64,000 bases of DNA from Opitutales bacterium (lineage in GTDB: Bacteria; Verrucomicrobiota; Verrucomicrobiia; Opitutales; PNEW01), in assembly GCA_965197745.1 (NCBI GenBank), contig CBDANS010000006.1:544001-608000 (forward strand), in the 5' to 3' direction. The notes beneath the pieces are model-generated. The model was not told the DNA's origin. It saw only the letters and a program-made list of their open reading frames with translations, and searched no databases. The translations under genes and the position numbers were made by a program. Shown here in pieces: positions 20,960 to 40,563 of this stretch (its first letter is position 1; each line of letters starts with the position of its first letter).

Positions 20960-22309
20960 TGATGTGACCCCCAAAAACCGTATCATTTACAGAGAGAGAT
21001 TATCGGAATAAACAGATAACCTCAATGAAAAGAAAAAGATAACCAACAGAACAGATCATATCAATACTGCAGCAAGCCGATACCGGCAAAACGGTAGAGG
21101 AACTCTGCCGTGGTAACAACCTAAGCGAACAAACCTTCTATCGCTGGGGTAAAAAGTATGGCAACTTGGAGCTGGCCGATGCGAAGCAATTTAAAGAGCT
21201 GGAAAAAGAAAACACCGAACTGAAGAAGCTGTTGCTGATCAAATGATCAAGAACCAAGTCTTGGAGGAAACGTTCTCATAAAAAGGGTAAGCCCAAAGCA
21301 GAAGAAGCGAGCAGTAAAAGATGCGGCTGAGAGAGGGCTGTGCTCGTTTTAGAGGGCATGTTCCTATCTCAGCCTCAGTTGGTCAACGTTCAGCTATCGG
21401 CCCAAGCAGACTAGCAAGAAAGCCCAATGATTGGCCGAGCGGATTGTAACTTTGTCCTGGGAACATCCGCGCTACGGTTATCGGCGCATCCGTGCCTTAC
21501 TGGTAAAGGAGGGCTGGACAACAAGCAGGAAGTTTGTCCAGGCAGTACGAGGTGCAGAGGGCTTACAGGTAAAGCGAACGAAAAAGCGCAGCCCCCGTCA
21601 AGGGGTCTCAACAGGGCTCCCCACTAAAGCAAAAGAACGCAATCACGTTTGGTCCTGGGACTTTGTCCATGATCGCACAGACAATGGCGGTCCATTAAAG
21701 ATGATGACCTTAATCTATGAATACACACGTATATGTTTAAGCCACCGGGTAGATAGACAGCTCACCTCAACCGATGTCCTCTCTGTGCTTAGCGAGGCCA
21801 TCGAAGAGGAGGGAGCTCCTAGCTATATGCGTAGTGACAACGGCAGTGTTCCTAGGAGCGAAGCGACGACATGCCAAGCCATTCATTGCTCATCAAGTGC
21901 AGCAGTGGTTGTCAGACAAAAACATCAAGGCGATCTATATCGATCCAGCCAGTCACTGGCTACCGAGCGAAGCGACACCTCAACGAGCCATAGCGAGAAT
22001 AACAAACGGTTTCATCGAGTCGTTTCACAACCGCTTACGCGATGAGTGTTTGAACCGTGAAGTGTTGCTCAGCGTAGCTGAAGCGCAAGTGGTAATCGAA
22101 CAATGGCGTCATAATTACAATAATGAACATCCCCACAGTCGTTTAGGCTTCAAAAGCCCACAAGAGTTTGTCAGATTCCTTTCCGATCTTGGCCGCGTTC
22201 GGGCTACGCCCTCACTTCGCCAAGATCTCTGCTATACACCAATCCTAAAACCATTAACACCCGGTAACTCTCTCACTTAAAAATTGGTACGAATAACGGG
22301 GTCCGATCA
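20960..22309 (+). mobile_element. IS3-family element, pseudogenised, with two micro-insertions in orfB
   Basis: IRs tgatgtgaccccc... and ...ggggtccgatca. OrfA has stops. OrfB has WSWDF, SDNGS and NGFIESFHNRLRDE. Confidence 0.92.
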
Positions 22310-22680
22310 CAGCCCCTGGATTGAGACAAAGCGATAATGCAGAAGATTGTCTAATTTTCACAAATCCAGACTGGAGGCAGCGTTACGAAATGCTTCCAGT
22401 TTTCCACTATAATAGCGGCGAAACCATGTTGGTAATACAAGGTTTTCCAAACGGAGACAAATTAACAAAATTTATTAAGTTGTATCTAGTTTCTTATGTG
22501 TTGGGCATGATTGCAAGGTACCTTCCATCCAAGTGGCTTTCCTTGCTACGAAATGAGAAGGGTGATTTTGCACAGCCACTTCTAGTTGGTGCGACGGAAG
22601 AACTTGAAATGAACTTTGCCAAAGAATTTTCAAACCAGTTACACAGTGTTCTACGGAAAATCCCTAATGATGTGAAATAA
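22310..22680 (+). pseudogene. C-terminal fragment of a YaaC-like protein truncated by the IS
   Basis: YLVSYVLGMIARYLPSKW motif recalled from YaaC-like proteins. Confidence 0.5.
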
Positions 22681-23469
22681 AAGGGATAATAGTTCATTTA
22701 GATCAGTGAGATATTAAAGACATAAAAGAGGTTTTGTATTGTGGATAGCTATGATCAACCAATGAACCCGTTGTTGAGTTCAGGCGAACCTGCATCAATA
22801 GACTAAATGCATGAAACTGTGGACGTATAGACAGAAGCATGTTCATGACAACGAGTAGTTTCACCTAAGCTGCTATTGAGAAGAAGCCAATCGAGATAGT
22901 TTAGCTACAATTGACCTTGTGGATGATGACCAACTGACGTATAAGCTCAAAGAATTAGTTTTTGGTGTGAAAACAGAACTTGTGGAAAAGGTGACTGTAG
23001 ACCCTGATTGGTTCCTAGCACTGTGACTTAGGATGACATAGTTTGGGAATTATATATTCGACGATCTCAAAAGTAAGGTAACATAAACAGAAATCAAATT
23101 AGAACATATCGTGGTTTAAACAAGAAAAGTGTATTTTGCAGGGGAATTATTCAGCCTCAAAGATTTTATAGACAACGCAGTATTAGCCGCTGTGATCAAT
23201 GAGGGATCAGAAGGGCGTTGTAGCTGCGTTTTACCCAGACCTTGGAGCAGCGTGATACGACGGCCATAAGTATTCGCGATCAGGATATCAAAACGCTTAT
23301 GCATGACACACTGTGAAACGTTCCTTACGAGAAAAGAACACAAGACCTGGCCTTTCGAATCATGTGTACTAGCTACGACTTGATCTGAAAAACACTGCTG
23401 GATCAAATCGCAACTCGGTTTGACAACAACATTGAAAATTTTCTTTTCAACTTTCGTTCAACCAAAAAT

Positions 23470-23997
23470 TTGCTGCCGGAAGTTGAGAAGAAAATTTTCA
23501 TACAAGCGGCTCTTGTAGCTGACACTGTCCGTAATATCATATACCGATTTGTACAAATCATGCCTATGAGATTTAACCCGTCCTGGCGTTATTGGAAGAC
23601 ACCCGTGCTCTTTGGTGCGGGCTTATGCATACTGCAAACCTTGGTGGCCATCGTGCGATTCGGCGGCAGGGAGAGTTGGAATCCGATCATCCTGTTGGAG
23701 ATACCGTTCATTCTGTTAGGGCTCATCATGTTCTTCCTGTGCGGCCTGTTGATTGGGTTGCTGGTGCAACGGCTATTGAAGGGCTCTAGTGGAGCTTGGC
23801 GCAGTACCTTGATGGTCGCTGTTGCACTAGCAACTCCACTTGCAGTTTGGTTCAGTTTAGTTGGAGGGTTGCTCGGCCCGCCTGGCATACTGTTCGGAGC
23901 GCTGATTCCCTATCTCCTCCTGGTCGGGATTCTGGTGTTGATCCATACCTGCTGCTTGCGTTTGGCAAGATCACGCGTTGCTAAAAAGCGGTCTTGA
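23470..23997 (+). CDS. Hypothetical membrane protein (start probably ATG 23560)
   Basis: Four hydrophobic segments. Confidence 0.6.
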   Translation: MLPEVEKKIFIQAALVADTVRNIIYRFVQIMPMRFNPSWRYWKTPVLFGAGLCILQTLVAIVRFGGRESWNPIILLEIPFILLGLIMFFLCGLLIGLLVQRLLKGSSGAWRSTLMVAVALATPLAVWFSLVGGLLGPPGILFGALIPYLLLVGILVLIHTCCLRLARSRVAKKRS

Positions 23998-24698
23998 GTT
24001 GCTAGGCTAGAGTCGCCCTTATTCAAATCCGATTATCACACTGCTGAAAAATACGTTTTGATGGTTTCCCATTTCTAAAAATCTTTTTTTGAGTTTGCGC
24101 TTAATCTGTTTGGAGAAATAAGCCAAATCGCCTATTCGCCCCTGATAGCTGCACTCATTGATGCCTGGGCATCCCTGGGCTGAGACTTTAGGGTAGACAC
24201 TGAACTGTTGATGGAGAAAAGAGGGAACACCTCGAATTTGATCCTGCTACCCTGCAAGCCGCTTGGATGGTTTCTGGACAAACTGTCGATTGGCAACTGC
24301 ATTTTACAGTTCCTCATGACAGAATTTTATTTCGAGGGGTAGCTGTTTCGGCGCTATTTTCAGAACCTTCCTGGATCTGAGAGATGGTCAAGGAGGGGTG
24401 GTTTTTTTTGCGCCAGATTGCTGCCGCCAATATTGTCATTTTTTATGTCTGTCGTATCTCTTTGTACAACGGTGAACTGTAGACACACTTAAAAAAGGAG
24501 AGGGAGGATCGACACGATCCTCTCTTATCGATCAGCCCATCAATTAAGGGGTTGTTTTAGGTTGTCTACAATGAAGGCCAACCTGTGGACACATAAAAAA
24601 AGAGCGCCTGGTAGTTTGAAGGTTGCCTGAGCAGACCGTTATTGGCGACAGTGTGCACGGACCAAAAGAGGACGGACCTAAGAGAGACCTTGGAGGGC

Positions 24699-24726
24699 GA
24701 CCCGCACAATCATTATTATGTCCAGT
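24699..24726 (+). other. dif-like XerC/XerD recombination site
   Basis: gacccgcacaa-tcatta-ttatgtccagt versus E. coli dif GGTGCGCATAA-TGTATA-TTATGTTAAAT (7/11 and 8/11 arm matches, 6-bp spacer). Gene orientation converges here. Confidence 0.6.
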
Positions 24727-25337
24727 TGATTTGTAAATTATTGATATTCAACATATTAATTTTATACATAAAATTCCTAACGGTCTTATAACGCCGCTAA
24801 TTAAGGAGTAAGCCCCAGTATAACACTCTGATTAAGCCGGGTTGATATACTCGTTGCATACTCACCACGACCCGTGATTTAGGGTTGTCACCTTCTTAGG
24901 ACGAGAGCATGTCTTGAGCAGTCTCCTTGCCCCGCCATCGCTTTAACCGTGCCCTTAGAAGTAGATCATGTTTCAAGGGGGCGGGGGGGTGCGCGATCAG
25001 AAGATATACCGCCAGTCATACTATCGATTTACTCACCGGAAAATATATTTACAAAGGACAAGGTTTGGCAGCAAAAATAATTTTAAAAGAACCACGCTTA
25101 AATTGGCTCTAAAATGTACGATCACTCTTCGTTAGGAACCCAATTTACTGTCTTAAGATGCAAACACCCTTTCTCGAGGCTCTCAGAGCCCTTCACGGGC
25201 AAATCAAATCATTGGTGGTGCTTCAAAAAATTCACCCCGCAAAGAGTAAACCAGCCAGCACTATGACAGGTGGTCGTGACCACGAAAACTGGTCCACTTG
25301 AAAAGTTAGTCTGGTCCAACTAGAAAGGACACAGACA

Positions 25338-25604
25338 ATGAAAGGCAAAAGATACACGACCGAAGAGAAAATACGGATGCTGCGCCAGGCGGACAAAGGG
25401 AAAACGATCCTGGAAGCATGCCGCGAGAACAACATAAGCGAACAGACCTTCCACCGCTGGAAACGTGAGTTTGGGATGATTGATGTCAACCAGGCCAAGC
25501 GGATGAAGGAGCTCGAGAAGGAGAACGCGCGGTTAAAACGGATGCTGGCGGACAAGATGCTGGGGATAGAGATCCTGCAGGAGACCCTCGAAAAAAAACT
25601 GTAA
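25338..25604 (+). CDS. IS3 transposase OrfA
   Basis: MKGKRYTTEEKI...ISEQTFHRWKREF...LEKKL. Confidence 0.92.
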   Translation: MKGKRYTTEEKIRMLRQADKGKTILEACRENNISEQTFHRWKREFGMIDVNQAKRMKELEKENARLKRMLADKMLGIEILQETLEKKL

Positions 25605-25624
25605 GCCCTGGGCACAAGCGGCAA

Positions 25625-26579
25625 GTGGCAGAGAGACTTGTGACTCGGGGCCAGTGTTCGATGCGAGCGGGGTGCCGGTACTTTCGGCTGCACCGTTCCA
25701 CCTATGCGTATAGGGCCAAGCATCCGGATGCCTGGCTAACGAAACTAAAAGCGGCAGTAAGGCGGTTATCACGGCAATACGCGAGGTGGGGCTATCCCAA
25801 GATCACGAAGCTGTTGAAGGACGAAGGCTGGCAGGTGGGTAAACGTCTCGTGCAAGGTCTGCGACGTGAACTGGGTCTGGCGATCCCCCCACGCAAGCCA
25901 AGACGCCGGCGCAGGGGTGTCTGCACCGGGCTACCGACAAAGGCCGAACATCCCGACCATGTTTGGACCTGGGATTTTATCCACGATAAGACGGTTCGCG
26001 GCGGCAGTCTAAAAATGCTGACCGTGCTCGATGAGTACACCCGCGAGTGCCGGGTGATCCATGTTGATCGCCATATCAATGCGGAAACGGTGCGCGGTAT
26101 CATGCAAAAACTGCTCGACCGGCATGGGCCGCCAAAATATATTCGTAGCGACAACGGTTCCGTTCCGAGGAGCGAAGCGACGACATGCAAAGCCATTCAT
26201 TGAAAGCCAATTGAGAGCCTGGCTAACTGCGATGAAAATCAAAACCCTCTATATCGAACCAGCAAGCCCTTGGCAGAACGGATACATTGAATCGTTCCAT
26301 GCCCGTTTTCGCGAGGAGTGTTTAAACCGTGAACAGTTATGGACTTTGACCGAAGCCCGCGTGGTCATCGAAGATTGGCGCTGGCTTTACAATCATGTCC
26401 GACCCCACCGCAGCCTCGGCAACATCACTCCACGGCACTTCACTGAAAACCTCAATACCGAAGGCTCGGGCTCCATTCGGGCTACGCCCTCATTGCGCCC
26501 AAGCCTTGACTTCCTCTACCAACTTAACTTCAACATTAACCTCTCCAGACTAACTCTCCCTGTGGACCAGTTTGTGTAA
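25625..26579 (+). pseudogene. IS3 OrfB frameshifted by a 33-nt insert at the DNGS/EF motif
   Basis: One frame ends SDNGSVPRSEATTCKAIH*; another continues FIESQLRAWL...PWQNGYIESFH. Confidence 0.9.
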
Positions 26580-26760
26580 CCCGACCACCCCATAGGGGAA
26601 AAACATGGTATCGCTGTGTTAGATTATGAAAATAATGTAGGACCCCATTTCGGGGGTTATGATTATGCGAGAGCCATTTATTTTGTGAAAAAAGATGAAA
26701 TTTGGTACCCTGTTAAATTTGAGTTTTCGCGCATTCGGAAGGGACAAGTGCAATAGAACT

Positions 26761-27219
26761 TTAAGCAATTTTTTTCGATATTTTAATCTCTTCGGGACAG
26801 CTTGGGTTGTCCGTTTTGTTTCTCTGGTAAACCTTGAACCCATGCTTCATGTAGAATGAACGCGTTATTTCATAAGGTGGGTATTCGACACTTTCCCCGA
26901 GCGTAGATGTAGCGAGTTCATTCAATCCCATGGAAGAGGCCGTCTCTTCGGCTTGCTCGATAAGTCGACTTCCAATGCCTTGTCGTTGGCAGTCCTTATT
27001 AACTCCAAGCCAACCGATATTGAGCCGACCCTCGGAAACGAAGAGGGTAATAAATCCGACGACCCGCCCGTTCAATTCCGCCAGGATTCCGCGCTGATGC
27101 TTGAGATCAACAGGGATGGAATGGTTGCGCGCGTGGTCAGTGAACCACTCGGGAAGACTATCAACCAGGGTTAGAATGGCGGCATGATCTTCAGGTTCTA
27201 TGGATCGAAAGGTGACCAT
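26761..27219 (-). CDS. GNAT N-acetyltransferase
   Basis: LGVNKDCQRQGIGSRL acetyl-CoA motif A and FYMKHGF. Confidence 0.88.
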   Translation of the reverse strand: MVTFRSIEPEDHAAILTLVDSLPEWFTDHARNHSIPVDLKHQRGILAELNGRVVGFITLFVSEGRLNIGWLGVNKDCQRQGIGSRLIEQAEETASSMGLNELATSTLGESVEYPPYEITRSFYMKHGFKVYQRNKTDNPSCPEEIKISKKIA

Positions 27220-27243
27220 CTCATTTTGCAGGCGTCAGTCTAA

Positions 27244-28092
27244 TTATTTTGAATCTTCACCATGCAGCCAGCGAAGTCCACCGGGCCAGCCTTGACTGCT
27301 CATCTCCAGGATGGGATAGCAATAGTCATTGATCCCGCTCAAGGTGTAGTCATATGCCTTACTCTGCCAGGCAAAGTAATTTGCTATGTCCGCGCCTGTA
27401 AATTGATCTACCCAAGTACAATGAGCTGACGGAGATTGGTGCCTCTCAATCAAGGAGGGCTGATTCATGAGATCCCACGTTGACGCCGGTGTTCCATCAG
27501 AATGCCTGTAGACAACCGCTGTTGAGGAGTCCACGGCACCCCACTTACGCTGCCGATAGGCCTCGATAATTACATGCCCACTGTATGCCTGTTTGGTATT
27601 ATACAGGTTTACGATTCGGCTCGGAACACCCGCAACCTGACAAAGAGAACAGGCGACCCTCGCAATATCGGTACACCATTCCGAACCTCGACTGATGATG
27701 GCTTCTTCAGTGCCACCAAATTGCATGGAATCAAGCGTCTCACCAGTGACTTTTTCCTCTAAATTTGCCGTGAACTTAACGATTGCTTCAATGCGCGCTT
27801 CAAGAGTTGGACAGCTCAACGTCACTTGTTCAGCGATATCTTCTATTTCCGCTCGAGACCCCTTTTTATAACTGACCTCGATAGGTGTGTATCCGGAATA
27901 AAGATACGTTGCCGTGTCAGAACACAAACGAATCATTTGCTCAGTCAATACCCTGTCAACCGAACTGGGCGCGTGGGTATCATTGTCCAACATCTTCTGA
28001 TAAGCTGGACCAAATTGTGCTCTCCCCATGAATCTGGAATAATTCATCCCTATACTCAATCTGGTTGATATAATTGAAAAGCCATAGCCCAT
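27244..28092 (-). CDS. Transglutaminase-like domain protein
   Basis: WCTDIARV...GHVIIEAY...WGAVD Cys-His-Asp triad. Confidence 0.8.
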   Translation of the reverse strand: MGYGFSIISTRLSIGMNYSRFMGRAQFGPAYQKMLDNDTHAPSSVDRVLTEQMIRLCSDTATYLYSGYTPIEVSYKKGSRAEIEDIAEQVTLSCPTLEARIEAIVKFTANLEEKVTGETLDSMQFGGTEEAIISRGSEWCTDIARVACSLCQVAGVPSRIVNLYNTKQAYSGHVIIEAYRQRKWGAVDSSTAVVYRHSDGTPASTWDLMNQPSLIERHQSPSAHCTWVDQFTGADIANYFAWQSKAYDYTLSGINDYCYPILEMSSQGWPGGLRWLHGEDSK

Positions 28093-28105
28093 ATCTTAAA
28101 ACCCG

Positions 28106-28906
28106 TTACTTTGTAATACATTTTAAATTCAGAAATTCATGAATTTTATTGTAACTGGCATCCCAATCTTCATGGGGGTTCACTAATTTAAGTTTCGGAA
28201 ATTCCAGGTAGGCATGCATCATCTCCGTTAATTTAATAAATTCATCCCAGAATATTATCATCCCTTCCCAATCGCGGTAACCGCGCGAGACAAACCATGA
28301 ACAATCACGATCTCTTTTAACCAGAAAATCAGCCCATTTTTCTCCTCGTATTTCGGGCAATCGACTTATATCTCCTTTTACGTCTGTAGTGTAAAGATTT
28401 ATAAGCACGGGTTGTATGGGATTGATAATCGAAGCGATGCGCTTGTTTACATCTATCACCTCCTCAACTGAAAATTCTGAGTATACCATGGGTAAACTGA
28501 TAGCATTCCAAAAACGACTGTCCATGATCGTAACGGTTTGATCATTAATGGAATTTTTAACAAAGCTCTCCCAATCATGAAGCATCTGGTTGATGGCAAT
28601 ATCCTGCCAGTACCGATTCAGGAAACCATTTTTGTTATAACCCGGATTTTTTTTGTAAAAAATTTCCCATTCAGCAGGATATTTTTGACGAAAGTCGTCA
28701 GAAGTATAAGTGAATGAAAAACGGATGGGATGGTCCCTGGCTTCCTCGGTAAAGATCTGACTGGGAATTCCGTGAAGCTTGTACTGTTGATATAAATAAT
28801 CCTGAAGGGTCGATTTTCCAGCACCAGGAATACCTTCGATCAATATAAGTTTTGTCTCAACCATGTTCTGAATTATTGAAACAGGGTTTGAGCTAATAGA
28901 GCGCAT
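28106..28906 (-). CDS. P-loop nucleotide kinase-like protein
   Basis: IEGIPGAGKST Walker A. Confidence 0.75.
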   Translation of the reverse strand: MRSISSNPVSIIQNMVETKLILIEGIPGAGKSTLQDYLYQQYKLHGIPSQIFTEEARDHPIRFSFTYTSDDFRQKYPAEWEIFYKKNPGYNKNGFLNRYWQDIAINQMLHDWESFVKNSINDQTVTIMDSRFWNAISLPMVYSEFSVEEVIDVNKRIASIINPIQPVLINLYTTDVKGDISRLPEIRGEKWADFLVKRDRDCSWFVSRGYRDWEGMIIFWDEFIKLTEMMHAYLEFPKLKLVNPHEDWDASYNKIHEFLNLKCITK

Positions 28907-28915
28907 GCTGTCTTA

Positions 28916-29683
28916 TTAAATCTTAACATATTTAATTAATTTAAATGCTCTTTCAGTCTTGTACCCTAATTTTCGCCCTAATGCGACCGAGGCTGTATTT
29001 TCTTTTTCAGCGTTCCAGCGAGTCTTAAATCCTTTTTCTGCACATTTGGTAATTAGATAGGCAACGGTAGTGTAGGCATAGCCTGACTTTTTGTAATTTT
29101 CATGAGTAATACCCCCAATCTCAACGTGACCTGCTCCCCAGAATGCCGCATAGGTTTCTACAATTATTTCGGTCTCTTTCATAAGACAATATCCAAGACC
29201 ATTTTTTAAAAAATTATCAATCGTCCCGCAGTTATGAATAATATGTCTACGCCAGAGACATGACTCAATAAGCTCATTATCAATCCTGCGCATACTACAA
29301 CCTGGGGGAAGATCTCTTGCTACCAGTTTCAAGTGTTCAAGCTCATCAGGGAGATCAAGAAATTCCAGGAATTCAGTATCCCCGGTTGCATTTGAGGGGG
29401 GTTCTAATTTACCAAAACCCTGAGAGGGCCAGTATAAATTTATATCAGAGCTCTCTCTAAGAAAAGAAACACTCTCATTGAGATCCTCTTGATCAAAATA
29501 ACCCCCTATACATACACCCCCCGGCAACAGGGCCAATGCCTGAGTTGGGTTCTCCGCATTATCCACAAAAACTTTACCGGGATTTTTTCCCTCAAGAACG
29601 GAAAAGAGCATCGGGTTATTCGGAATGGTATTTTCGAAGAGTGTTTTGGTTATAGAAAAATGTTCAGGTGATAGATCGATCAT
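28916..29683 (-). CDS. GNAT family acetyltransferase
   Basis: EIGGITHENYKKSGYA and NTASVALGRKLGY. Confidence 0.8.
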   Translation of the reverse strand: MIDLSPEHFSITKTLFENTIPNNPMLFSVLEGKNPGKVFVDNAENPTQALALLPGGVCIGGYFDQEDLNESVSFLRESSDINLYWPSQGFGKLEPPSNATGDTEFLEFLDLPDELEHLKLVARDLPPGCSMRRIDNELIESCLWRRHIIHNCGTIDNFLKNGLGYCLMKETEIIVETYAAFWGAGHVEIGGITHENYKKSGYAYTTVAYLITKCAEKGFKTRWNAEKENTASVALGRKLGYKTERAFKLIKYVKI

Positions 29684-31508: not shown

Positions 31509-32093
31509 TCAACCGATTTCGTTTCTAAGCTTCGCTATCAGGACCTTGTTAACTTCAGGAATTATCGACAATTCCGAAAGCAACGTCGCTGCATTTTCAT
31601 CTGAATAGACTAACTTTGGCCGCTTGAGTTTCTCGCATGCACAGGCCATATAATGATCGGCATCCGTCCTCCCCCTCTTGGCTTGTTTTACAGCCCCAGA
31701 AATATTCCAGAACGCTGATGTTGCGACAGACCAGTCAGGAAATGGCATTGGCCATTTCTGTGTGCAGTCGCGATCAGACGCGATGAGGATTTCTACTCTC
31801 CAGAACACAGGTAAGTGATGAAAGTTAATCCTCAGATCCTGGGCCATCCGATTGTCATTATAGTCTGGATCGTAACGCAGTGACAGTGGCCCGAAACGGT
31901 CCTGCAAACACACCACGATGTCATCGAAGAATTCCTGATTAAGTTCTTCATGGACTTCAGCCTTCAGATCCACGTCGCTGTAGTCGTCCACCTCCCCAGA
32001 AGCAAAGGATCCCCGGAACGCAACTTGGCCCGAACTGAAGTGGTCCCTGAGTACGGCAAGCACCGCATTTCCGAATTGCCGGATGGTCATCAT
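31509..32093 (-). CDS. Nucleotidyltransferase-domain protein
   Basis: RGSFASGEVDDYSDVD motif. Confidence 0.75.
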   Translation of the reverse strand: MMTIRQFGNAVLAVLRDHFSSGQVAFRGSFASGEVDDYSDVDLKAEVHEELNQEFFDDIVVCLQDRFGPLSLRYDPDYNDNRMAQDLRINFHHLPVFWRVEILIASDRDCTQKWPMPFPDWSVATSAFWNISGAVKQAKRGRTDADHYMACACEKLKRPKLVYSDENAATLLSELSIIPEVNKVLIAKLRNEIG

Positions 32094-32098
32094 TACGG

Positions 32099-32158
32099 TG
32101 CCAACGTCATGCCTCAGTGGAGGGACTTGTCAGGGTCCACTTCAGCGCTTTGTTTTCT
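32099..32158 (-). other. Degenerate attC-like site
   Basis: Minus strand reads AAC-aaagc-gctgaagtgga...tccactgag-gcatga-cGTTggca, overlapping a stop codon and followed by the next start. Confidence 0.4.
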
Positions 32159-32644
32159 GTGTTTCATTTTTTCGTTCTCTAAGATTGACAACTTCAACAG
32201 CACTTTGGCAATTGGCGAATGCCCATATTCGAGGGTCTGCAAAAACTGATTGGGACTGACAAGCTTGCGATGAGCTATCTCGTATTTCTGAGTAAACGGC
32301 TGGACACGTACCCTGCATGAATACCGCATCTGATAATGGACTGAATCATCTTGAAGGTCTCGAACATGCTGCCAACCCATTAGAGAGTGTTTGATTACTT
32401 CGCAGCAGGATTCCTCCAAAATCTCGCGCTTGAGCGCATCGTCGAGCGATTCGTCATTTTCCGGGTGTCCCCCGGGTATGTTCCATGTTTTGCCATCCGA
32501 ACTGATCATTACGATTTGATCATCAGGAGTAAAACAGACGGCACTTACCTGGGTTGTTTGAGCACGCGGCGGTAAATTCTTTCCGCACTCCCATGTCACT
32601 TCAAAGCGCCGCCCTTCAAATTCCGTCTGATCCCTAAGTATCAT
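32114..32644 (-). CDS. NUDIX hydrolase
   Basis: PGGHPENDESLDDALKREILEE. Confidence 0.88.
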   Translation of the reverse strand: MILRDQTEFEGRRFEVTWECGKNLPPRAQTTQVSAVCFTPDDQIVMISSDGKTWNIPGGHPENDESLDDALKREILEESCCEVIKHSLMGWQHVRDLQDDSVHYQMRYSCRVRVQPFTQKYEIAHRKLVSPNQFLQTLEYGHSPIAKVLLKLSILENEKMKHRKQSAEVDPDKSLH

Positions 32645-32682
32645 TTTTTTCCCCAGCGAAAATCAGATTATCCATCTGGTTT

Positions 32683-33216
32683 TTAGCGATTAGCTGTATG
32701 AGCTTTATCGATGATATCGGTATAAACATCTGTTTTGCCATAGGTATATGACTTTCTGTCATCTGAAAATTTACTCGCTAATTCACACTTCACATCTGCG
32801 TATTTCATTCTCATCACTGGGTTATTGCACAAGAAATCTCTGAATAAGAGGTAATCGCGCCATTGTGGATCCGCCTCGGTTACCATGTGAATATGGGAAT
32901 GGACGATATTGTATTGGACCCAAATGAAAAGGTGCCCTCCAGCGATCCCCTTGTCACCTCGATATTCATAACCCGCATTTGTCATACTGTCGATGTTTGC
33001 ACTGATATCGTTTTTCTTTGAAACAACAACAAGAATATCGACGATGGGCTTCGGCGGAAGTTCAGGAATAGAGGTACTGCCGATATGCTCAAATCGAATG
33101 AACCTGCCGTTGAGCGCCTCTGAGATTTTTATTTTCTCTTTCTCATAAAACTTGGCCCATACTTCGTGGTCAGTCCTCAATTCAACGGTACCATGTTGTA
33201 ATCCTGTCATAGACAT
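32683..33216 (-). CDS. GrpB family protein
   Basis: EHIGSTSIP..KPIVDI, LLFRDFL and YTYGKT. Confidence 0.88.
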   Translation of the reverse strand: MSMTGLQHGTVELRTDHEVWAKFYEKEKIKISEALNGRFIRFEHIGSTSIPELPPKPIVDILVVVSKKNDISANIDSMTNAGYEYRGDKGIAGGHLFIWVQYNIVHSHIHMVTEADPQWRDYLLFRDFLCNNPVMRMKYADVKCELASKFSDDRKSYTYGKTDVYTDIIDKAHTANR

Positions 33217-33249
33217 AAAAAAAGGAACTTTTTTATATATATATTTATA

Positions 33250-33963
33250 TTAAATACTGTTTAGTATCGGGATTAAGCACTCCAGGGAATCTATTTCATA
33301 ATCAGGTTCGATAGTGCCCCTACTTCTGACAGAATCACGATTGAGCAACACCGATAGTATACCGCTGTCCTTAGCTCCTTTAATATCTGATTCAAGTGAA
33401 TCCCCTATATGCATTAGCTCATCGGGATTACACGCTGCTTTTTCTAGAGCAATATCGAACAGCCTTCGATCAGGTTTTTCTACCCCGTGATCCTGTGAAA
33501 AAATGACAAAACTGAAATAGCCCTCAAGACCACATCGGTCGGGGTAGTTGTTCCCGTTTGATAATAATCCAATTTTGTAACTACCGGCTAATGCATCTAA
33601 TGCCGTAATAACATCTTCATATAATTCTATGTCTTCAAATCTGTGTTTTAAATAAATCTCATTAAGTTCATGTGCTAATTCATCATTCTTTACACCGAAA
33701 AATTTCAATATCCGTTGAAATGCTTTGTAACGAACATCCTCAAGATTGATGATACGCCCTTTATATTCTTGTGCCACTTCATTTCGTATTTGGATCATTT
33801 TCTCTATGCTCAACAGAGCCGACTGTTCCCTCGTTACATGATCTTTAAGTTCGATAAGGACATGTTGCAAAGAATGTCTCATGACTTTTTCAAAATCCCA
33901 GAGCGTGCCATCACCATCGAAGGATAGTGCTTTGATTTGTGTGACTATTGGTCGATTAAGCAT
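33250..33963 (-). CDS. HAD-superfamily hydrolase
   Basis: FDGDGTL, KPD and HIGDSLESD. Confidence 0.88.
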   Translation of the reverse strand: MLNRPIVTQIKALSFDGDGTLWDFEKVMRHSLQHVLIELKDHVTREQSALLSIEKMIQIRNEVAQEYKGRIINLEDVRYKAFQRILKFFGVKNDELAHELNEIYLKHRFEDIELYEDVITALDALAGSYKIGLLSNGNNYPDRCGLEGYFSFVIFSQDHGVEKPDRRLFDIALEKAACNPDELMHIGDSLESDIKGAKDSGILSVLLNRDSVRSRGTIEPDYEIDSLECLIPILNSI

Positions 33964-34040
33964 CTGATTCGTTTTACAACAGCGTGGTTAACACCGCATT
34001 TTGAGCATGAAGAAGAGTCTGCCTCCCTTTTGACTGACAC

Positions 34041-35258
34041 CTAAACGTCGAGTATCTCCCGAGTTGTCTCGTAGCCGCCTGCGACATGAGCTGCAAGCCA
34101 GTCCGGACTGTCTCGCCGCGGTAGCGACAGCGCCGGTTCGCCCTTACAGCTCAAGCGGTAGAGTAGCCGGGCATCGTCAATCGAGCTGATTTTGAACTTG
34201 ATTGGCGGCGAGTTGTGCAGAGTCATGAAATTGTCCCAGATCGTCACGTCGCCCGGTGTGTGCACATGGTCGTAGCGGAATTGTGGCTGGAGCACGTGCG
34301 CTTCCAGGCGATCGAGAAAAGCGCGTGATTGCTCTATCGTCATCCCGTCTACCTCGATCGCCGGCCGTACCCCTGGCCGCGAAGCCCAGATCGGACTGTG
34401 TAAAGACTTTATCCCCGAACGCGGGTTGGTGCGCACCAAGGGCGCGAGCCACCCTTCATCTCCCTCGTTTAACCGTCGCCGCAGTTGAACGCGTTCCAGT
34501 GCAGTCTGCTCATCAGCCGGTAAAGCCTCAAAAGCAGCCGCCGTATCGGCATAGGGTGTCTCACCGTTTAAGGGCATATTCTTGCGCAGCTGCATCAACC
34601 TGACGTCAGAGTCCTCGTAATACGGTTTAGGGTCGCTGCTCGGTTCCTGTATCCAGTATCCTCCAGGGGCGTCGCGCGTGAGGGGCACATGGTGGACGAG
34701 AAACATGGACACGTATATCGGCAACAACTCGTACTCGATATCCGTATGCCAGGCGCCACCGGTTGACACGCGGGTATCCCCCTTCTCCCCCTTTTCCCGC
34801 TTCTCGTTGAAATTAGACACGACAAGCACCGTCGGCGACTCATGCGGCAGGCACTGCAACTGGTCAGGGAAAATCCTGTCGACGGCGGCCACCCTCCGCT
34901 TCTCGTAGGGGACAAACTCGATCGGTCCGTCGCTGGCCCCGTCATCTTGCGCCAGCTTGCCCCCACGCATGAAATTGTTCGGGTGCGGAATCGGCGCGCC
35001 CCAGTGATTGGCAAAGCGCTCAAAGTGGGCAAGGGAAAACCGGGCCAAATCCTGACCGGCGATGCAGACGATCCGAAACTGGCTTAATGCGTCGAGCAAA
35101 AAACCCACCTGGTCCTCGCTCAACTGGCAGCACAAGTCGATACCGGTGAAACGCACTCCAGCTCCGCTTTGGGTCAATGGGTTTTCGCTGTGCGCGTCGA
35201 CGCCGAACAGCACCTGCAGCCGCCGCTCCAGTTGCTGGTTTTTTGTTCCATTGTTCAT
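34041..35258 (-). CDS. TauD/TfdA family dioxygenase
   Basis: WHTD and GDVTIWDNFMTLH. GC-richer than neighbours. Confidence 0.85.
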   Translation of the reverse strand: MNNGTKNQQLERRLQVLFGVDAHSENPLTQSGAGVRFTGIDLCCQLSEDQVGFLLDALSQFRIVCIAGQDLARFSLAHFERFANHWGAPIPHPNNFMRGGKLAQDDGASDGPIEFVPYEKRRVAAVDRIFPDQLQCLPHESPTVLVVSNFNEKREKGEKGDTRVSTGGAWHTDIEYELLPIYVSMFLVHHVPLTRDAPGGYWIQEPSSDPKPYYEDSDVRLMQLRKNMPLNGETPYADTAAAFEALPADEQTALERVQLRRRLNEGDEGWLAPLVRTNPRSGIKSLHSPIWASRPGVRPAIEVDGMTIEQSRAFLDRLEAHVLQPQFRYDHVHTPGDVTIWDNFMTLHNSPPIKFKISSIDDARLLYRLSCKGEPALSLPRRDSPDWLAAHVAGGYETTREILDV

Positions 35259-35347
35259 AACTATCCCCTCATGTATAGCTATGGGCTAATATAAATGAAA
35301 GCATAAGGGGCAGTTGTTGTAATTTTTTTTAATTTATAACTGTCGCC

Positions 35348-36214
35348 CTATATCTCCATGCCGAAGTGGTCATGGAAGAACTTAGCGTATTCATCTAAAG
35401 TCATCTCTCGACCAAAATTAACCCAGTCCTCATCCGACATCGCCCGACGCCCGGCAGCCCATCCTTTAGCATCTTCACCACACAGATAGCGGAGCTTTGG
35501 CTGATTCGTTTCCAGTGATCGCTGAATAGTCTCTGCCACCAGTTTCGGTGGAGAAGCATTTGGCAACATTGTCGCGGACAGCCTTTTACTTCGCAAGTTA
35601 AACGCGTTATAAGGAGAATTGGGATCCGGATCTGGTCCGCGTTTATCAAAGATCGGGGTTCGGATAAATCCTGGCTCGATGATTACCACCCGGATGTTAA
35701 AGCGCCGAACTTCCTGCGCCAGGGATTCACTCGCCGCCTCAAGGGCGAACTTCGATCCGGAGTAGGCACCGCCCCGCGCGTTTGCCAGTAGTCCCGCGAT
35801 CGAAGAGACATTGACAATCGCGCCGCTACGGGCTTGACGCATGGTTGGCAGCACCAGTCGCATCATGCGCATCGCACCGAAGTAGTTGGTCTCAAAGACC
35901 GCCCTTAGAACTTCCTCCGGCATTTCTTCTATGGGACCACCCCCGCCGATGCCGGCATTGTTGATCAACACATCGAGCTGTCCCGTCCGCTCAAGAACCG
36001 TTTCCACCGCGCGCTCGGAAGATTTCGGATCATTCACATCGAGTTGAATTATATCAAGCTTCAGTCCCTCCTTTCGGGCCGCCTGCTTCAGCTCGTCTGA
36101 ACCGGTATCCGGGTTGCGCATGCTGGCAAAGACATGATATCCCTGGCGGGCCAGGTGGAGCGCTGTAGACTGACCGATGCCGGTGCTCGTTCCTGTAATG
36201 AGTGTAACTGACAT
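35348..36214 (-). CDS. Short-chain dehydrogenase/reductase
   Basis: TGTSTGIG, NNAG and YSGSK. Confidence 0.92.
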   Translation of the reverse strand: MSVTLITGTSTGIGQSTALHLARQGYHVFASMRNPDTGSDELKQAARKEGLKLDIIQLDVNDPKSSERAVETVLERTGQLDVLINNAGIGGGGPIEEMPEEVLRAVFETNYFGAMRMMRLVLPTMRQARSGAIVNVSSIAGLLANARGGAYSGSKFALEAASESLAQEVRRFNIRVVIIEPGFIRTPIFDKRGPDPDPNSPYNAFNLRSKRLSATMLPNASPPKLVAETIQRSLETNQPKLRYLCGEDAKGWAAGRRAMSDEDWVNFGREMTLDEYAKFFHDHFGMEI

Positions 36215-36561
36215 GTTCTTCTCCTTTAATTCTTATTCTTTAGCTCAACCAGATAAAAAAACACAGTTTCTATTAAAATTGCATAAACTACCGCTCTCAA
36301 TTGACATTCAGCAAATGTTTTGCAGGCAGCGTCTGCGCATCTGCCGAGTAGGCATCATAATATTAGAAGCGAGAGGATCAAGAGAATTTGTAAGCTCATG
36401 TGTTAAAGCATGTTCGATTTGATCCGAACGGTTGTCAAACGATATAAAAAATAAACGAATCTCAGGGTGGGCAGGTCCCAAGTATAGTTTAAATTTGTCG
36501 GTCAGCAGGATTTGTCTGCATCATTAATTTTGATAAAACCGACATAACAACTTGCGATAAT

Positions 36562-36594
36562 CTACATATGTAGTCTACTTGTCTACTTAAGTAG
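36562..36594. promoter_or_regulatory. Paired BlaI/CopY-type operator boxes
   Basis: ctacatatgtag (TACAnnTGTA) and ctacttaagtag palindromes just upstream of the BlaI-family gene. Confidence 0.75.
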
Positions 36595-36616
36595 TCTTTA
36601 AAAGAGTAAAACAACT

Positions 36617-37009
36617 ATGAATGAGAATAAGAAAATAAAATTATCCCGTCTGGAAATGGAGGTAATAGAGCCACTATGGAATATGGGCACCGCGTCGATT
36701 CGCCAGATTCATGAAAGTTTACCCGAAGAGAAACGTCCCGAGTTCACTACGGTGCAAACGATAATCTATCGTCTGGAAGAAAAAGGTGCGGTAAAGCGAC
36801 TCCATAAAATTGGCAATGCCTATATCTTCAATCCCCTTATCAGCCGCAAATCAGCGATTGGAAACTTGGTCGATGATTTACTCAGTCTCTTAGGAGGATC
36901 CCCTAACCCTATGATGGCCCATCTCCTGGAGACGGGAAAAATTACGCTAAAGGATTTAAAGCAGATGGAAACCATCTTGGATAATAACCGAGAAGAGGAC
37001 AAAAAATGA
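36617..37009 (+). CDS. BlaI/MecI/CopY family repressor
   Basis: LSRLEMEVIEPLW...TTVQTIIYRLEEKG. Confidence 0.92.
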   Translation: MNENKKIKLSRLEMEVIEPLWNMGTASIRQIHESLPEEKRPEFTTVQTIIYRLEEKGAVKRLHKIGNAYIFNPLISRKSAIGNLVDDLLSLLGGSPNPMMAHLLETGKITLKDLKQMETILDNNREEDKK

Positions 37010-39177
37010 AGCTATTTAATATTGTCAATGGACCGACACTCACTTTCTGGGTTGATATGGGCAATCACCTTTGGCAGTCCACGCTGTTTGGTTTATTCAT
37101 TGTCCTGGTAATCTTATTTCTAAATAATGCATCTGCGAATACGAGATACATTGTCGGTTGGATCGGGTTAATAAAATTTATCCTTCCCTCTGCCCTTTTG
37201 TATCAGGCAGGACAAAGTCTCCAGCTATCATTCTTTAATAAAGAGTTTTGGAATATAGAAGGATTAATCCCGTTTAACCCTCAATTTACAGAACCATTGT
37301 TCCTCTTTAATAAGACGGACTCATTATTAGTAGAACCGGTATCGATAACGACTGTATCACCCTACTCTGGAATAACCTTATTAAATATTCTTGGGTTTAT
37401 ATGGCTGGTTGGCGCTCTGCTTATTTTTGTAAGATGGCAATATCAACTTCACAATCTAAAACGAGAATTACTGACCCAGTCCCGACCGGCAAATGAATCG
37501 CTGAATACACTGTTAAAGCAATTAAGGGTAAAAATTAACCTCAAAAATAATGTATCAGCCTTACTCATCGATAAAAAAATCGAACCCGGTGTTCTTGGTG
37601 TATTCACTTCTAAGCTAATTCTGCCTGATTATCTGGTTAAGAATTTATCGGCAAAGGAGCTTGAGCCTATCCTCATACATGAACTGGCTCACGCTAAACG
37701 CCGTGACAACTTATGGGGTTTTTTGCAAATGGTCTTATTTTGTCTCCTCTGGTTTAACCCCTTAATCTGGTGGTTGAATCGTCGTTTAACCTGGGAGAGT
37801 GAAAGATCCTGCGATGAAACAGTTCTTATTCAATCCAAAGATAAAAACAATTATGCGAAAGGTATTATTATGGTTTCGCATTATTGTATCGGTTTAAAAA
37901 CACCGGGCTTTTCAGGTATTAACGATATACGCCTGGAAAACAGATTGGAATCTATTATCAGATTCAACGGTAATAAATTATTCAGTCGCTTCACGCACCG
38001 GTTTATTATTGTCACTGCCTTGTTCTTCTTATTTCTCACCACTTCAACCAGTGGATTCCTTGCTCATTTAGGAGCATTAAACATTCATGAAGACAGTAAC
38101 ACTGCAAAAGATGTTATTGCCGCCGCAGAGGGTGACTCGATAAATGAAGTCATCAATAATAGAGAGGCTGTTTTGCCCGATGAAAAGGCCTTCAATGCTG
38201 TAAATAATAGCCATGAAGTAATACCAATGGCTAAGGAGGAAAGAAGCAATGAATCCCACTCGGGTTATGTTGAAATCGCACCTGAATCAACACTCAAAAT
38301 AACAGATTCAGATCCTCCTCAATCTATTGAGGTGGAAGATTATACTAGCTTACCCGATTCCGTAAAGATTCCCTTTTTCAATGCCTCCACAACCTCTACT
38401 CTCAATAAGCTGTTTAGACCGCTGCAGGTTGCCCAAACCACAGGTGGAGATAAAACGGATCGAATTTATGAACGGGAATATCCGACAAGCTATGAGGAAG
38501 AAGTTGACATAAATATCGCTGACTATCCCGATCTGGAAATTAAAAATAAAGTGATGCCGAGATTTCCAAGATCGGTTCTCCATTTAGGTTACGATAAAGG
38601 CTTTGCCAAAATAGTTTTTATTGTCGATGAGGCAGGTCAACAGAGAGATTTTGTCGTAACCTCTACTTCTCATCCCGACTTCGGCATGGAGTTACTTAAA
38701 GCATTAAGAAAATGGAAATTTTCTCCCATCTACGTTAAGAGAAAACCACAGACGACGCGGATCAAATTGGAAGCTAACTTTAAATTTAGAGGGATCAGTA
38801 ATGATGATATAAATATAATAGAAGAAGCCCAATTGCGTTTTGAAAGAGTTAAGCCCATCTACAGAATAAATAATCTAAGTGAATTAGATAGGGAACCAAG
38901 ACTGCTTAAAGAAGTGCCTCCCTTTTTTCCTGAAAAAATGAAAAGAAGAAACAAAAACGGGAGAGTATTGGTTGAGTTTTTCATTGATCCTAACGGTAAC
39001 GTATTGGCTCCGGGAATAAAGTCGGCAACGAATGATGATTTTGCCATTGCCGTCCTATCCGCTGTTCAGAAATGGAAGTTTGAACCACCAATGAAGAATG
39101 GAATCCCGGTATCAGCGCATGTGTTTCAGCATTTCAATTTTAGTTATGTCCCGGTGAAAAAAAATAAAAACAGGTAA
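37006..39177 (+). CDS. BlaR1-like M56 peptidase fused to two TonB C-terminal domains
   Basis: HELAH, WFNPLIW and ERSCDE, plus two TonB_C repeats ending WKFSP and WKFEP. Confidence 0.9.
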   Translation: MKLFNIVNGPTLTFWVDMGNHLWQSTLFGLFIVLVILFLNNASANTRYIVGWIGLIKFILPSALLYQAGQSLQLSFFNKEFWNIEGLIPFNPQFTEPLFLFNKTDSLLVEPVSITTVSPYSGITLLNILGFIWLVGALLIFVRWQYQLHNLKRELLTQSRPANESLNTLLKQLRVKINLKNNVSALLIDKKIEPGVLGVFTSKLILPDYLVKNLSAKELEPILIHELAHAKRRDNLWGFLQMVLFCLLWFNPLIWWLNRRLTWESERSCDETVLIQSKDKNNYAKGIIMVSHYCIGLKTPGFSGINDIRLENRLESIIRFNGNKLFSRFTHRFIIVTALFFLFLTTSTSGFLAHLGALNIHEDSNTAKDVIAAAEGDSINEVINNREAVLPDEKAFNAVNNSHEVIPMAKEERSNESHSGYVEIAPESTLKITDSDPPQSIEVEDYTSLPDSVKIPFFNASTTSTLNKLFRPLQVAQTTGGDKTDRIYEREYPTSYEEEVDINIADYPDLEIKNKVMPRFPRSVLHLGYDKGFAKIVFIVDEAGQQRDFVVTSTSHPDFGMELLKALRKWKFSPIYVKRKPQTTRIKLEANFKFRGISNDDINIIEEAQLRFERVKPIYRINNLSELDREPRLLKEVPPFFPEKMKRRNKNGRVLVEFFIDPNGNVLAPGIKSATNDDFAIAVLSAVQKWKFEPPMKNGIPVSAHVFQHFNFSYVPVKKNKNR

Positions 39178-39313
39178 GTAAACCTTCAAGTAAGCTACTC
39201 AAGGCAGAAAGGGGTAAAATGGCTAAGCTTTTCCATAATAGGTTACTGGTCGTGACCACGAAAACTGGTCCACTTGAAAAGTTAGTCTGGTCCAACTAGA
39301 AAGGACACAGACA

Positions 39314-39580
39314 ATGAAAGGCAAAAGATACACGACCGAAGAGAAAATACGGATGCTGCGCCAGGCGGACAAAGGGAAAACGATCCTGGAAGCATGCCGC
39401 GAGAACAACATAAGCGAACAGACCTTCCACCGCTGGAAACGTGAGTTTGGGATGATTGATGTCAACCAGGCCAAGCGGATGAAGGAGCTCGAGAAGGAGA
39501 ACGCGCGGTTAAAACGGATGCTGGCGGACAAGATGCTGGGGATAGAGATCCTGCAGGAGACCCTCGAAAAAAAACTGTAA
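39314..39580 (+). CDS. IS3 transposase OrfA
   Basis: Identical protein to 25338-25604. Confidence 0.92.
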   Translation: MKGKRYTTEEKIRMLRQADKGKTILEACRENNISEQTFHRWKREFGMIDVNQAKRMKELEKENARLKRMLADKMLGIEILQETLEKKL

Positions 39581-39600
39581 GCCCTGGGCACAAGCGGCAA

Positions 39601-40555
39601 GTGGCAGAGAGACTTGTGACTCGGGGCCAGTGTTCGATGCGAGCGGGGTGCCGGTACTTTCGGCTGCACCGTTCCACCTATGCGTATAGGGCCAAGCATC
39701 CGGATGCCTGGCTAACGAAACTAAAAGCGGCAGTAAGGCGGTTATCACGGCAATACGCGAGGTGGGGCTATCCCAAGATCACGAAGCTGTTGAAGGACGA
39801 AGGCTGGCAGGTGGGTAAACGTCTCGTGCAACGTCTGCGACGTGAACTGGGTCTGGCGATCCCCCCACGCAAGCCAAGACGCCGGCGCAGGGATGTCTGC
39901 ACCGGGCTACCGACAAAGGCCGAACATCCCGACCATGTTTGGACCTGGGATTTTATCCACGATAAGACGGTTCGCGGCGGCAGTCTAAAAATGCTGACCG
40001 TGCTCGATGAGTACACCCGCGAGTGCCGGGTGATCCATGTTGATCGCCATATCAATGCGGAAACGGTGCGCGGTATCATGCAAAAACTGCTCGACCGGCA
40101 TGGGCCGCCAAAATATATTCGTAGCGACAACGGTTCCGTTCCGAGGAGCGAAGCGACGACATGCAAAGCCATTCATTGAAAGCCAATTGAGAGCCTGGCT
40201 AACTGCGATGAAAATCAAAACCCTCTATATCGAACCAGCAAGCCCTTGGCAGAACGGATACATTGAATCGTTCCATGCCCGTTTTCGCGAGGAGTGTTTA
40301 AACCGTGAACAGTTATGGACTTTGACCGAAGCCCGCGTGGTCATCGAAGATTGGCGCTGGCTTTACAATCATGTCCGACCCCACCGCAGCCTCGGCAACA
40401 TCACTCCACGGCACTTCACTGAAAACCTCAATACCGAAGGCTCGGGCTCCATTCGGGCTACGCCCTCATTGCGCCCAAGCCTTGACTTCCTCTACCAACT
40501 TAACTTCAACATTAACCTCTCCAGACTAACTCTCCCTGTGGACCAGTTTGTGTAA
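39601..40555 (+). pseudogene. IS3 OrfB frameshifted by the same 33-nt insert
   Basis: Insert at 40139-40171. Confidence 0.9.
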
Positions 40556-40563
40556 CCCGACCA

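Follow-up and report, generated by a model that had tools for sequence, protein, structure and literature searches.

In a 64,000-nucleotide stretch of the genome of an Opitutales bacterium (contig CBDANS010000006.1, positions 544,001 to 608,000; hereafter the window), insertion sequences (ISs) of the IS3 family carry a 33-nt insert in their transposase gene orfB, each time at the same catalytic-motif codon. The observation is larger than first reported, since the insert belongs to a family of miniature, precise, and sense-only units that occupy IS3 genes and tRNA-derived repeats. We favor, at a probability of roughly 0.55, the reading that these units represent a mini-element, recently spreading, precise, and strand-specific, which breaks IS3 transposases and travels with them as a hitch-hiker, with its movement probably owed to a dedicated activity acting in trans.

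The 33-mer occurs four times in the window, twice exactly, once with two mismatches, and once, on the reverse strand, with three (Table 1), and not once in 100 dinucleotide-preserving shuffles. Each copy lies directly 3' of GAYAAYGG NNNN G and is followed by TTCATTG. An earlier note on this sequence had reported the insert at these four places and counted two differences in 33 positions between the copies at 21849 and 26163, and both statements were borne out. The note had also claimed that the host elements are clearly different, and this holds: their terminal inverted repeats (IRs) read TGGTCGTGAC... and TGGAGTGACC..., and in the comparison of lineages A2 and B1 the unit is identical at 33 of 33 positions, while the 60-nt flanks on either side are only 50% and 55% identical. 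The insert was further said to replace the last two bases of the Glu codon, with a net gain of 31 nt. Real empty alleles agree with this, as the insert-free copies that the note proposed to look for are present in the genome: four A1 copies outside the window, at C4:137739, C7:407146, C7:1353533, and C7:1902146, read GACAACGGTTCCGAGTTTATT at the empty site, and five old B-type relics read GGCAGTGA[GA]TTC. Because the occupied (nine) and empty (four) copies of A1 differ only by a 31-nt gap and 2 to 4 mismatches, it follows that the empty site reads GAG, the AG of which gives way to the unit. Neither allele can be derived from the other by a single contiguous insertion or deletion. The genome has 22 uninterrupted GAYAAYGGNNNNGARTTY sites; by class they comprise four A1 copies, five old B-type relics, eleven copies of lineage F, two other IS3-like sequences, and one unrelated sequence. 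Lineage F, an IS3 lineage of 11 copies, is never occupied in the source genome. Two lineage F copies lie in the window at about 2861 (C6:546861, +) and about 4383 (C6:548383, -), both with the Glu codon intact.

When the whole source assembly (7 contigs, 4.45 Mb, about 45% GC, 92% complete) was searched with up to 6 substitutions to the 33-mer, all 73 matches of this type, S1, were located at the same DNGxEF Glu codon of IS3 orfB, and none elsewhere. They are distributed over at least five IS3 lineages with different flanks. The random positions among IS copies that would have spoken against the earlier note were not seen. Related units were found at three further orfB codons. The S2 unit (44 nt, beginning with TACCGAGGAGCTGAAAGCGACGACA and ending in ACA) sits in the motif L-I-D-E-Y-T of lineage B copies, where it replaces AA (the empty allele in the window reads ATG-AA-TAC) and stays in frame with an in-frame TGA. 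S3 (44 nt) takes the place of AA in the P-W-Q-N-G Gln codon and is in frame and open; its pattern matched 16 times, with 13 matches in IS3 copies and 3 unrelated. S4 (37 nt, ending in TCA), which was first met in contigs of three sequencing runs and then in 17 genome copies, replaces AG in R-D-E-C-L-N and causes a -1 frameshift with a TAG in frame, whereas S1 shifts the frame by +1. In total, the source genome holds 136 such units (73 S1, 33 S2, 13 S3, and 17 S4), all of them sense to orfB. The lineage B copy in the window is occupied at S1 and S3 and empty at S2 and S4, and scoring S2/S1/S4 occupancy across copies yielded 15 patterns, including + + + (5 copies), + + - (23 copies), and - - + (1 copy).

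The family thus comprises at least four related types with a length of about 28 to 44 nt, and its architecture can be written as T[A/T]CCGAGGAGC, 1 to 8 nt, GCGACGACA, 0 to 6 nt, GCGAAGC, 0 to 7 nt, CA. The boxes CCGAGGAGC and GCGACGACA are common to all types (reduced in S3), GCGAAGC is usual, and the spacers vary. The replaced dinucleotide is an A followed by a purine, located after G (once C) and before T (once A); in IS3 orfB it makes up the second and third positions of a conserved Glu or Gln codon, and in the tRNA-derived repeats described below it corresponds to the AA of the T-loop or D-loop sequence TCG^AA^T. Half-units or split units were not found in the source genome, and the idea that the unit is the footprint left by a larger insert was rejected on this ground.

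The units are far more alike than the elements that carry them. Between B1 and B2, the coding flanks show a dS of 0.54 to 0.90 with a dN/dS of 0.08 to 0.13, while the units are identical at 77 of 77 positions. Across 2,628 pairs of S1 units, sorted by flank identity, the mean number of unit mismatches in 33 positions stayed at 0.65 to 0.97 in each of the six bins below 0.97, compared with the 2.2 to 18.2 expected if the units had diverged along with their flanks (in the 0.97+ bin, 0.15 versus 0.1 expected). Since unit mismatches stay low whatever the divergence of the flanks, the common origin of all S1 units is far younger than the IS lineages. The identity block around the units stops 10 to 17 nt from the unit, and the A and B flanks beyond it are about half identical; flanks as similar as the inserts, which the earlier note would have taken as the sign of a single ancestral event or a long conversion tract, were not seen. 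At the same time, recombination among IS copies is evidently frequent. In A1, a polymorphism at positions 256 to 258 is combined with unit status in all four possible ways (the four-gamete pattern), chimeras with an A-type left and a B-type right part joined at the unit occur in the source genome and in a second genome (G001), and B1 and B2 are 96% identical 3' of S1 but 80 to 88% identical upstream of it. The suggestion of gene conversion between IS families therefore stands as far as recombination among copies is concerned, but not for conversion of long tracts, and ordinary conversion accounts neither for identity islands of unit size set between half-identical flanks nor for the different variant that occupies the same codon in another genus. 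An apparent conversion patch around the unit in lineage C was rejected, as the flank differences there are ordinary synonymous changes.

Units are not confined to IS3 genes. Three more were found in the source genome 3' of tRNA-Asn and tRNA-Gln genes, within hairpin-like repeats that each end in a copy of the 3' end of their own tRNA. These repeats (L009 718-900, C6:355517-355699; L010 620-710, C5:236519-236609; a tandem pair after tRNA-Asn) are made up, in this order, of the complement of the 3' part of the tRNA, GATGAGAAC, a short hairpin, GTTCG, the unit, and the tRNA 3'-end copy through CCA, and they give a weak match to the Rfam family RtT (E 0.48). A wider scan of 185,579 species genomes returned at least 32 loci. 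Among the matches listed are IS3 copies with units in the sister genus; a Cerasicoccus IS3 (L032) of another lineage, in which the same DNGxE^F codon holds a different variant of the unit and which is a relative of lineage F, unit-free in the source genome; a Ruficoccus IS3 in which a further site is occupied; and many tRNA-linked repeats in which the unit lies between G and AATCC of a T-loop copy, as well as D-loop copies (TCG^AATGG) upstream of a tRNA gene. The tRNA-linked units among these listed matches come from Puniceicoccaceae, Pelagicoccus, Opitutaceae, Lentisphaerae, and Woeseiaceae records. The matches in Thermoanaerobaculia and Enterovirga, two in all, are weaker and look like chance coding sequence. 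Within the order, the two-box motif is present in 20 of 151 genomes, with 103 copies in the source genome, 70 in G040, 60 in G002, and 16 in G001, and the reversed-pattern control gave 0 in all of them. In metagenomes, a first pattern gave no match and a second gave three loci, all corresponding to the same Lentisphaerae-type tRNA-Ser locus as L041. The same-codon variant in Cerasicoccus, together with related units at further IS3 codons and in copies of tRNA T- and D-loops, indicates that insertion is precise and recurrent, which supports in part the repeated sequence-directed targeting that the earlier note had proposed: the recurrent use of A-purine dinucleotides at the DNGxEF codon, at three more IS3 codons, and in tRNA loops is consistent with it.

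Several repeats in these genomes deserve mention in their own right. In the Woeseiaceae record L045, positions 3035 and 13649 (G042:C8:17034 and 27648) mark two 75-nt direct repeats 10.6 kb apart, reminiscent of the ends of an island, each resembling the 3' half of a tRNA and holding a unit in its T-loop. The copies in G040 are nested in a different small repeat, one akin to the S3 unit; this high-copy repeat (70 places in G040:C1, e.g., L055 1002, L058 1006, and L060 978), from another family of the order, reads ..aaggggtc TACCGAGGAGCGGATGCGACGACACCTCAACGAGCATAGCGAGAATAACAACCTTG... A noncoding module, TTCCGAGGAGC-N3-GCGACGACA(A/T)GACCGG-hairpin-CCGGA, in places followed by CCACCCGCGCGGGTGAAAGTCC and in tandem, recurs at L059 930-1250 (G040:C1:1615930-1616250, 140-nt period), L005 about 1480-1580, L049, L053, L061, and L064 to L066. 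It may be a structured RNA; Rfam returned no match for it.

Judged by their reading frames, it is plausible that the units inactivate the transposase, which would leave unit-bearing copies dependent on mobilization in trans. Other defects are shared within the same lineages. A TAG codon in orfB (..LCSF*RAC..) is common to 20 B1-type copies, including the window copy at 20960-22309; B2 has CGA at this position. In lineage A, a 3-for-2 replacement (GA to TTT) breaks the orfA frame in the aligned A2 copies, in four of nine occupied A1 copies, and in two of four empty A1 copies. This change, located at about IS position 244-246, turns the Glu codon context CTC-GA-GAAG into CTC-TTT-GAAG, and it might be the footprint of an event at another G^AG site; the corresponding region of the window (25514-25516) has the intact GAG form. 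Two empty A1 copies (C7:408025 and C7:1352654) have both orfA and orfB intact, are the only fully intact unit-free masters, and could serve lineage A. B1 comprises 14 copies at an identity of at least 98.7% and A2 about 14 copies. Given that the lineages with shared defects consist of many near-identical copies (14 to 16), some with intact 4-bp target site duplications (TSDs), defective copies were evidently amplified in trans in the source genome.

According to the favored reading, entry of the unit into its target would be precise and confined to a single orientation, the one that is sense to the host RNA, and would replace an A-purine dinucleotide. Units would have recently colonized the IS3 population of this genome and then ridden on it, with IS transposition copying them and recombination among IS copies shuffling them, while the breakage of the frame would turn unit-bearing copies into non-autonomous passengers of a few unit-free masters, i.e., the unit would be a parasite of a parasite. 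Several observations weigh against this proposal. No enzyme or intermediate for unit movement was identified, one candidate motif having been tested across 151 genomes. The target, (G/C)^AR^(T/A), is far too short to explain why units are restricted to IS3 genes and to repeats, tRNA-linked or other. In diverged lineages alike, each IS3 site holds a unit type of its own, which a free pool inserting de novo would not predict; this fidelity of type to site points to copying from an occupied homologous site, yet no co-converted flank accompanies it. The assembly, 92% complete as it is, contains no unit-free intact master of lineage B, and the only visible defects of B2 are its two units, so that the recent expansion of lineage B is unexplained unless a master has been lost or the units are tolerated. 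Finally, the run data that bear on removal of the unit at the RNA or DNA level consist of assembled contigs only. It is tempting to speculate on a more specific scheme, which we advance tentatively: ultra-small (about 30 to 44 nt) enzyme-less units of an undescribed class might copy themselves precisely and strand-specifically from an occupied to a homologous empty site, replacing two bases without any conversion tract in the flanks, possibly via an RNA or single-strand intermediate and an unrecognized trans-acting enzyme. Their natural targets would be both sequences resembling tRNA T- and D-loops and look-alike conserved codons of IS3 transposase genes, and in the ISs they would act as a sterilizing hyperparasite.

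Alternatively, the units could be tolerated inserts similar to introns or bypass elements, being removed from the mRNA or skipped by the ribosome, with unit conservation reflecting the signals for removal; the earlier note had listed excision, splicing, or bypass among its options. This would account for the sense orientation of every unit, for the fact that unit-bearing lineages are the most numerous and youngest, and for flanks under strong purifying selection next to units that stay identical, and its main point in favor is B2, which lacks any defect besides its two units in an assembly without a unit-free B master. For S1 alone, a hop from CCG to CCA or a +1 shift would, by reading of the sequence, give an open product. 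We nevertheless consider tolerance unlikely. Recoding is improbable because the frame effects differ by type, ranging from +1 (S1) and -1 with TAG (S4) to in frame with TGA (S2) or open (S3), and because no pair of take-off and landing codons is common to S1, S2, and S4: S1 offers only CCG..CCA, while S2 and S4, ending in ACA and TCA, lack a matching codon. Schemes devised by eye for S1 (a hop from CCG to CCA or from GCG to GCG, or a +1 shift at AGC-G-AAG) were dropped, as S2, S3, and S4 need other shifts or none. Excision fares no better, since the empty GAG cannot be obtained from the occupied allele by a single deletion. Nearest-neighbor DNA folding gave the units no structure (z between -0.05 and +1.73, no better than shuffles), and a covariation signal is not possible because the boxes do not vary and the spacers are of different lengths. 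Rfam, at an E value of up to 1 on the unit loci, returned no family for the units, but only tRNAs, two plastid cis-regulatory matches overlapping a tRNA on the opposite strand (E 0.04 to 0.07), and a weak RtT match on five unit loci; group I and group II introns and known ribozymes were also discarded in view of the unit length of only 28 to 44 nt. A hairpin built on tandem sheared G·A pairs (GAGGAGC/GCGACGA, with the spacer as loop) was conceived by inference and finds no support in standard DNA folding. To these points can be added that B1 and A2 were amplified despite other shared nonsense and frameshift defects and that units also occur in noncoding tRNA-linked repeats. Sequencing runs X20, X21, X1, and X3 were aligned to locus L044, which holds A2 and B1 ISs; the RNA contigs span the A2 and S4 sites, not the S1 and S2 units of B1. 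One RNA-library metatranscriptome contig skips the A2 unit, with AG joining both sides, and was rejected as a splice product since its sequence equals the empty DNA allele GAG, whereas other RNA-library contigs retain the S4 unit.

Two further explanations would dispense with an element of its own. One ancestral insertion per site could have spread among IS copies and lineages by ordinary homologous recombination and gene conversion alone, with concerted evolution keeping the identical 33- to 44-nt patches uniform. The four-gamete pattern at 256-258, the chimeras joined at the unit, the higher B1/B2 identity 3' of S1, the many copies without matching TSDs, and the presence of its own unit type at each site all agree with this idea. 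Against it, identity stops 10 to 17 nt from the unit, and A and B flanks of 50 to 55% identity make a poor substrate of the RecA type; moreover, a different variant is found at the same codon in the Cerasicoccus IS3 lineage that is unit-free in the source genome (11 copies), and units are located at unrelated targets (T-loops, D-loops, and other repeats) and in other phyla. We therefore doubt that recombination without dedicated mobility suffices. It seems more doubtful still that the host itself directs the disruption, with a chromosomal enzyme, for instance, a sequence- or structure-specific nuclease leaving a short filler, breaking IS3 genes as a defense that tames the IS load. Such a defense would fit the four conserved catalytic-domain motifs that are hit (DNGxEF, LIDEYT, PWQNG, and RDECLN), the fact that IS3-type transposases are the only protein genes hit in the source genome, and the recent origin common to all S1 units across lineages, and the 2-nt replacement might reflect a staggered cut. 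However, no candidate gene was found, lineage F is untouched in the source genome with its 11 copies, and a defensive role makes no sense for units in tRNA-linked and other repeats.

A small GIY-YIG nuclease was considered as a possible mover. The source genome gives eight GIY-YIG matches, one of which, judged by its 498-aa open frame, looks like UvrC, and four lie beside a TTGTCATTGCGAGGAGC..GCGACGAAGCAATCCAGG motif, which is positioned directly upstream of the GIY-YIG open reading frame (ORF) or, in three cases, just past its 3' end in inverted orientation. Since this motif (8 of 151 genomes) and the unit (20 of 151) overlap only in G000 (the source genome), G001, and G002, the GIY-YIG link is not supported; put differently, the GIY-YIG/inverted-repeat family with the core GAGGAGC-N3-GCGACGA accompanies units in only 3 of 20 unit-positive genomes. 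The inverted-repeat element itself has about 50 copies in the source genome, with arms TTGTCATTGCGAGGAGC-N3-GCGACG(A/C)(A/G)GCAATCCAGG that share this core with the IS3 units. It encloses or abuts a small GIY-YIG ORF at C7:483646-483953(-), C7:1542004-1542333, C7:1545548-1545877, and C6:787810-788140; short copies resembling MITEs (miniature inverted-repeat transposable elements) occur, e.g., at C6:507635, C6:654409, and C7:1024180, and some copies have a further short module nested at GC^AATCC.

In the literature searched, we found no description of such inserts in IS3 transposases. The closest described systems are the cyanobacterial small dispersed repeats (SDRs) and, more loosely, Rickettsia palindromic elements (RPEs) and bypass elements, the defining structural features of which are lacking here. 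SDRs, repeats of Nostoc and related cyanobacteria, are 21 to 27 nt long and are not known outside the cyanobacteria, with three families sharing a hairpin supported by compensatory changes. Our units resemble them as dispersed units far below 100 nt, with precise presence or absence in otherwise identical sequence, a location inside other repeats and mobile elements, and no known encoded enzyme. In contrast to SDRs, they measure 28 to 44 nt, lack a predicted structure, replace 2 nt, lie strictly in sense at conserved transposase codons, and come from Verrucomicrobiota, Lentisphaerae, and Woeseiaceae records. SDRs are reportedly the subject of a paper by Elhai et al. (Genome Res 2008, 18:1484). 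RPEs are palindromic, about 100 to 150 bp long, in frame and translated, and occur in ORFs and an RNA gene. The units share with them the character of selfish short repeats within ORFs and an RNA gene, but are three to four times shorter, nonpalindromic, and mostly frame-breaking. The mitochondrial "byps" of Magnusiomyces are bypassing elements, and like them the units are short (27 to 55 nt in bypass elements), mobile sense inserts at conserved ORF positions. Bypass elements need matched take-off and landing codons by which the frame is restored, a stop or rare codon following take-off, and a 5' hairpin, however, whereas here only S1 has a possible pair and structure is absent. The T4 gene 60 hop, a case of programmed translational bypassing, is treated in a preprint (bioRxiv 10.1101/2022.08.31.505936).

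Repeats of the REP/REPIN-RAYT type and derivatives of IS200/IS605 are comparable in being non-autonomous, very short, presumably mobilized in trans, and strand-specific in their insertion, but they are hairpins located outside genes, bearing either a conserved GTAG or a subterminal hairpin, that insert 3' of a fixed tetranucleotide without loss of target, whereas the units described here lack Watson-Crick hairpins, replace 2 nt, and have 5' flanking bases that vary except for the last G (C at S3). Likewise, the hallmarks of MITEs are missing: neither terminal inverted repeats nor TSDs of the unit were found, and two target bases are replaced. As for homing, the fidelity of type to site would fit; a co-converted flank was not seen and a nuclease was not identified. 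The E. coli tyrT/RtT repeats are repeat units at the 3' end of a tRNA gene. They resemble the tRNA-linked repeats, which also stand in tandem 3' of a tRNA gene and in which every repeat closes with a copy of the 3' end of the tRNA concerned, and differ in that the repeats described here hold a unit in the T-loop copy and follow many tRNAs in several phyla.

If the units are truly mobile, they would be among the smallest mobile DNA known and the first found to aim at the catalytic codons of a family of transposases, acting as a natural sterilizing agent for ISs. This would bear on how IS load is controlled in IS-rich genomes, on how non-autonomous copies come to outnumber their masters, and on what kind of enzyme is able to insert about 35 nt at a defined dinucleotide, replacing 2 nt while exchanging no flanking sequence. 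Apart from mobility, gene callers will label the 136 units in the source genome as frameshifted or pseudogenized transposases and the tRNA-linked copies as odd repeats, and recognition of the unit allows for their correct annotation.

Table 1. Units, empty sites, and IS3-family host elements in the window
Feature	Position	Strand	Remarks
S1 unit (type 1, A1 variant ...ATGCAAAGCCA)	26163..26195	+	Exact 33-mer; AG of the DNGSEF Glu codon replaced, net +31
S1 unit (type 1)	40139..40171	+	Identical to 26163-26195
S1 unit (type 1, 2 mismatches)	21849..21881	+	Inside the lineage B copy
S1 unit, decayed (3 mismatches)	9121..9153	-	After DNGC
S3 unit (44 nt, TACCGAGCGAAGCGACACCTCAACGAGCC..AATAACA)	21961..22004	+	AA of the P-W-Q-N-G Gln codon replaced; in frame and free of stops; 42-column gap versus B1
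Empty S2 site (G^AA^TAC, L-I-Y-E-Y-T)	21719..21721	+	Lineage B copy; 44-nt unit here in B1/B2
Empty S4 site (GATG^AG^TGT, R-D-E-C-L-N)	22044..22046	+	Lineage B copy; 37-nt unit here in 17 other copies
IS3-family element, lineage A1 copy 1	25271..26587	+	1317 bp; orfB split by unit; boundaries, 100% self match, TG...CA ends
orfA of A1 copy 1	25338-25604	+	
A8 slippery run of A1 copy 1	25591-25598	+	
IS3-family element, lineage A1 copy 2	39247..40563	+	2 positions different from copy 1
Decayed IS3-family element, lineage B	20960..22309	+	About 90% to B1; has the TAG nonsense codon of B1-type copies
Decayed IS3-family element, lineage A type	8736..10070	-	87.9% to A1; C6:554070-552736

The assignment of the host elements to IS3 is based on HTH_Tnp_1 in orfA (3.6e-20) and on HTH_21 plus rve and rve_3 on the two halves of orfB in both window lineages; an A8 slippery run of the -1 type lies between orfA and orfB, and all listed copies have TG/CA ends. 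A 4-bp TSD was recognized in 6 of 23 B copies and 9 of 31 A copies, many copies being without matching TSDs. Three A-type IS3 copies are cut at ..cagaac|ggatacatcgaatc.. by a larger element with a conserved AT-rich end. This element, which cuts at W-Q-N-G|Y-I-E-S, was considered as a source of the units and set aside as unrelated, its site and ends being different; its junctions were located at C7:1693031, C6:1180519, and C1:24256 on the right and at C7:1066385 on the left.

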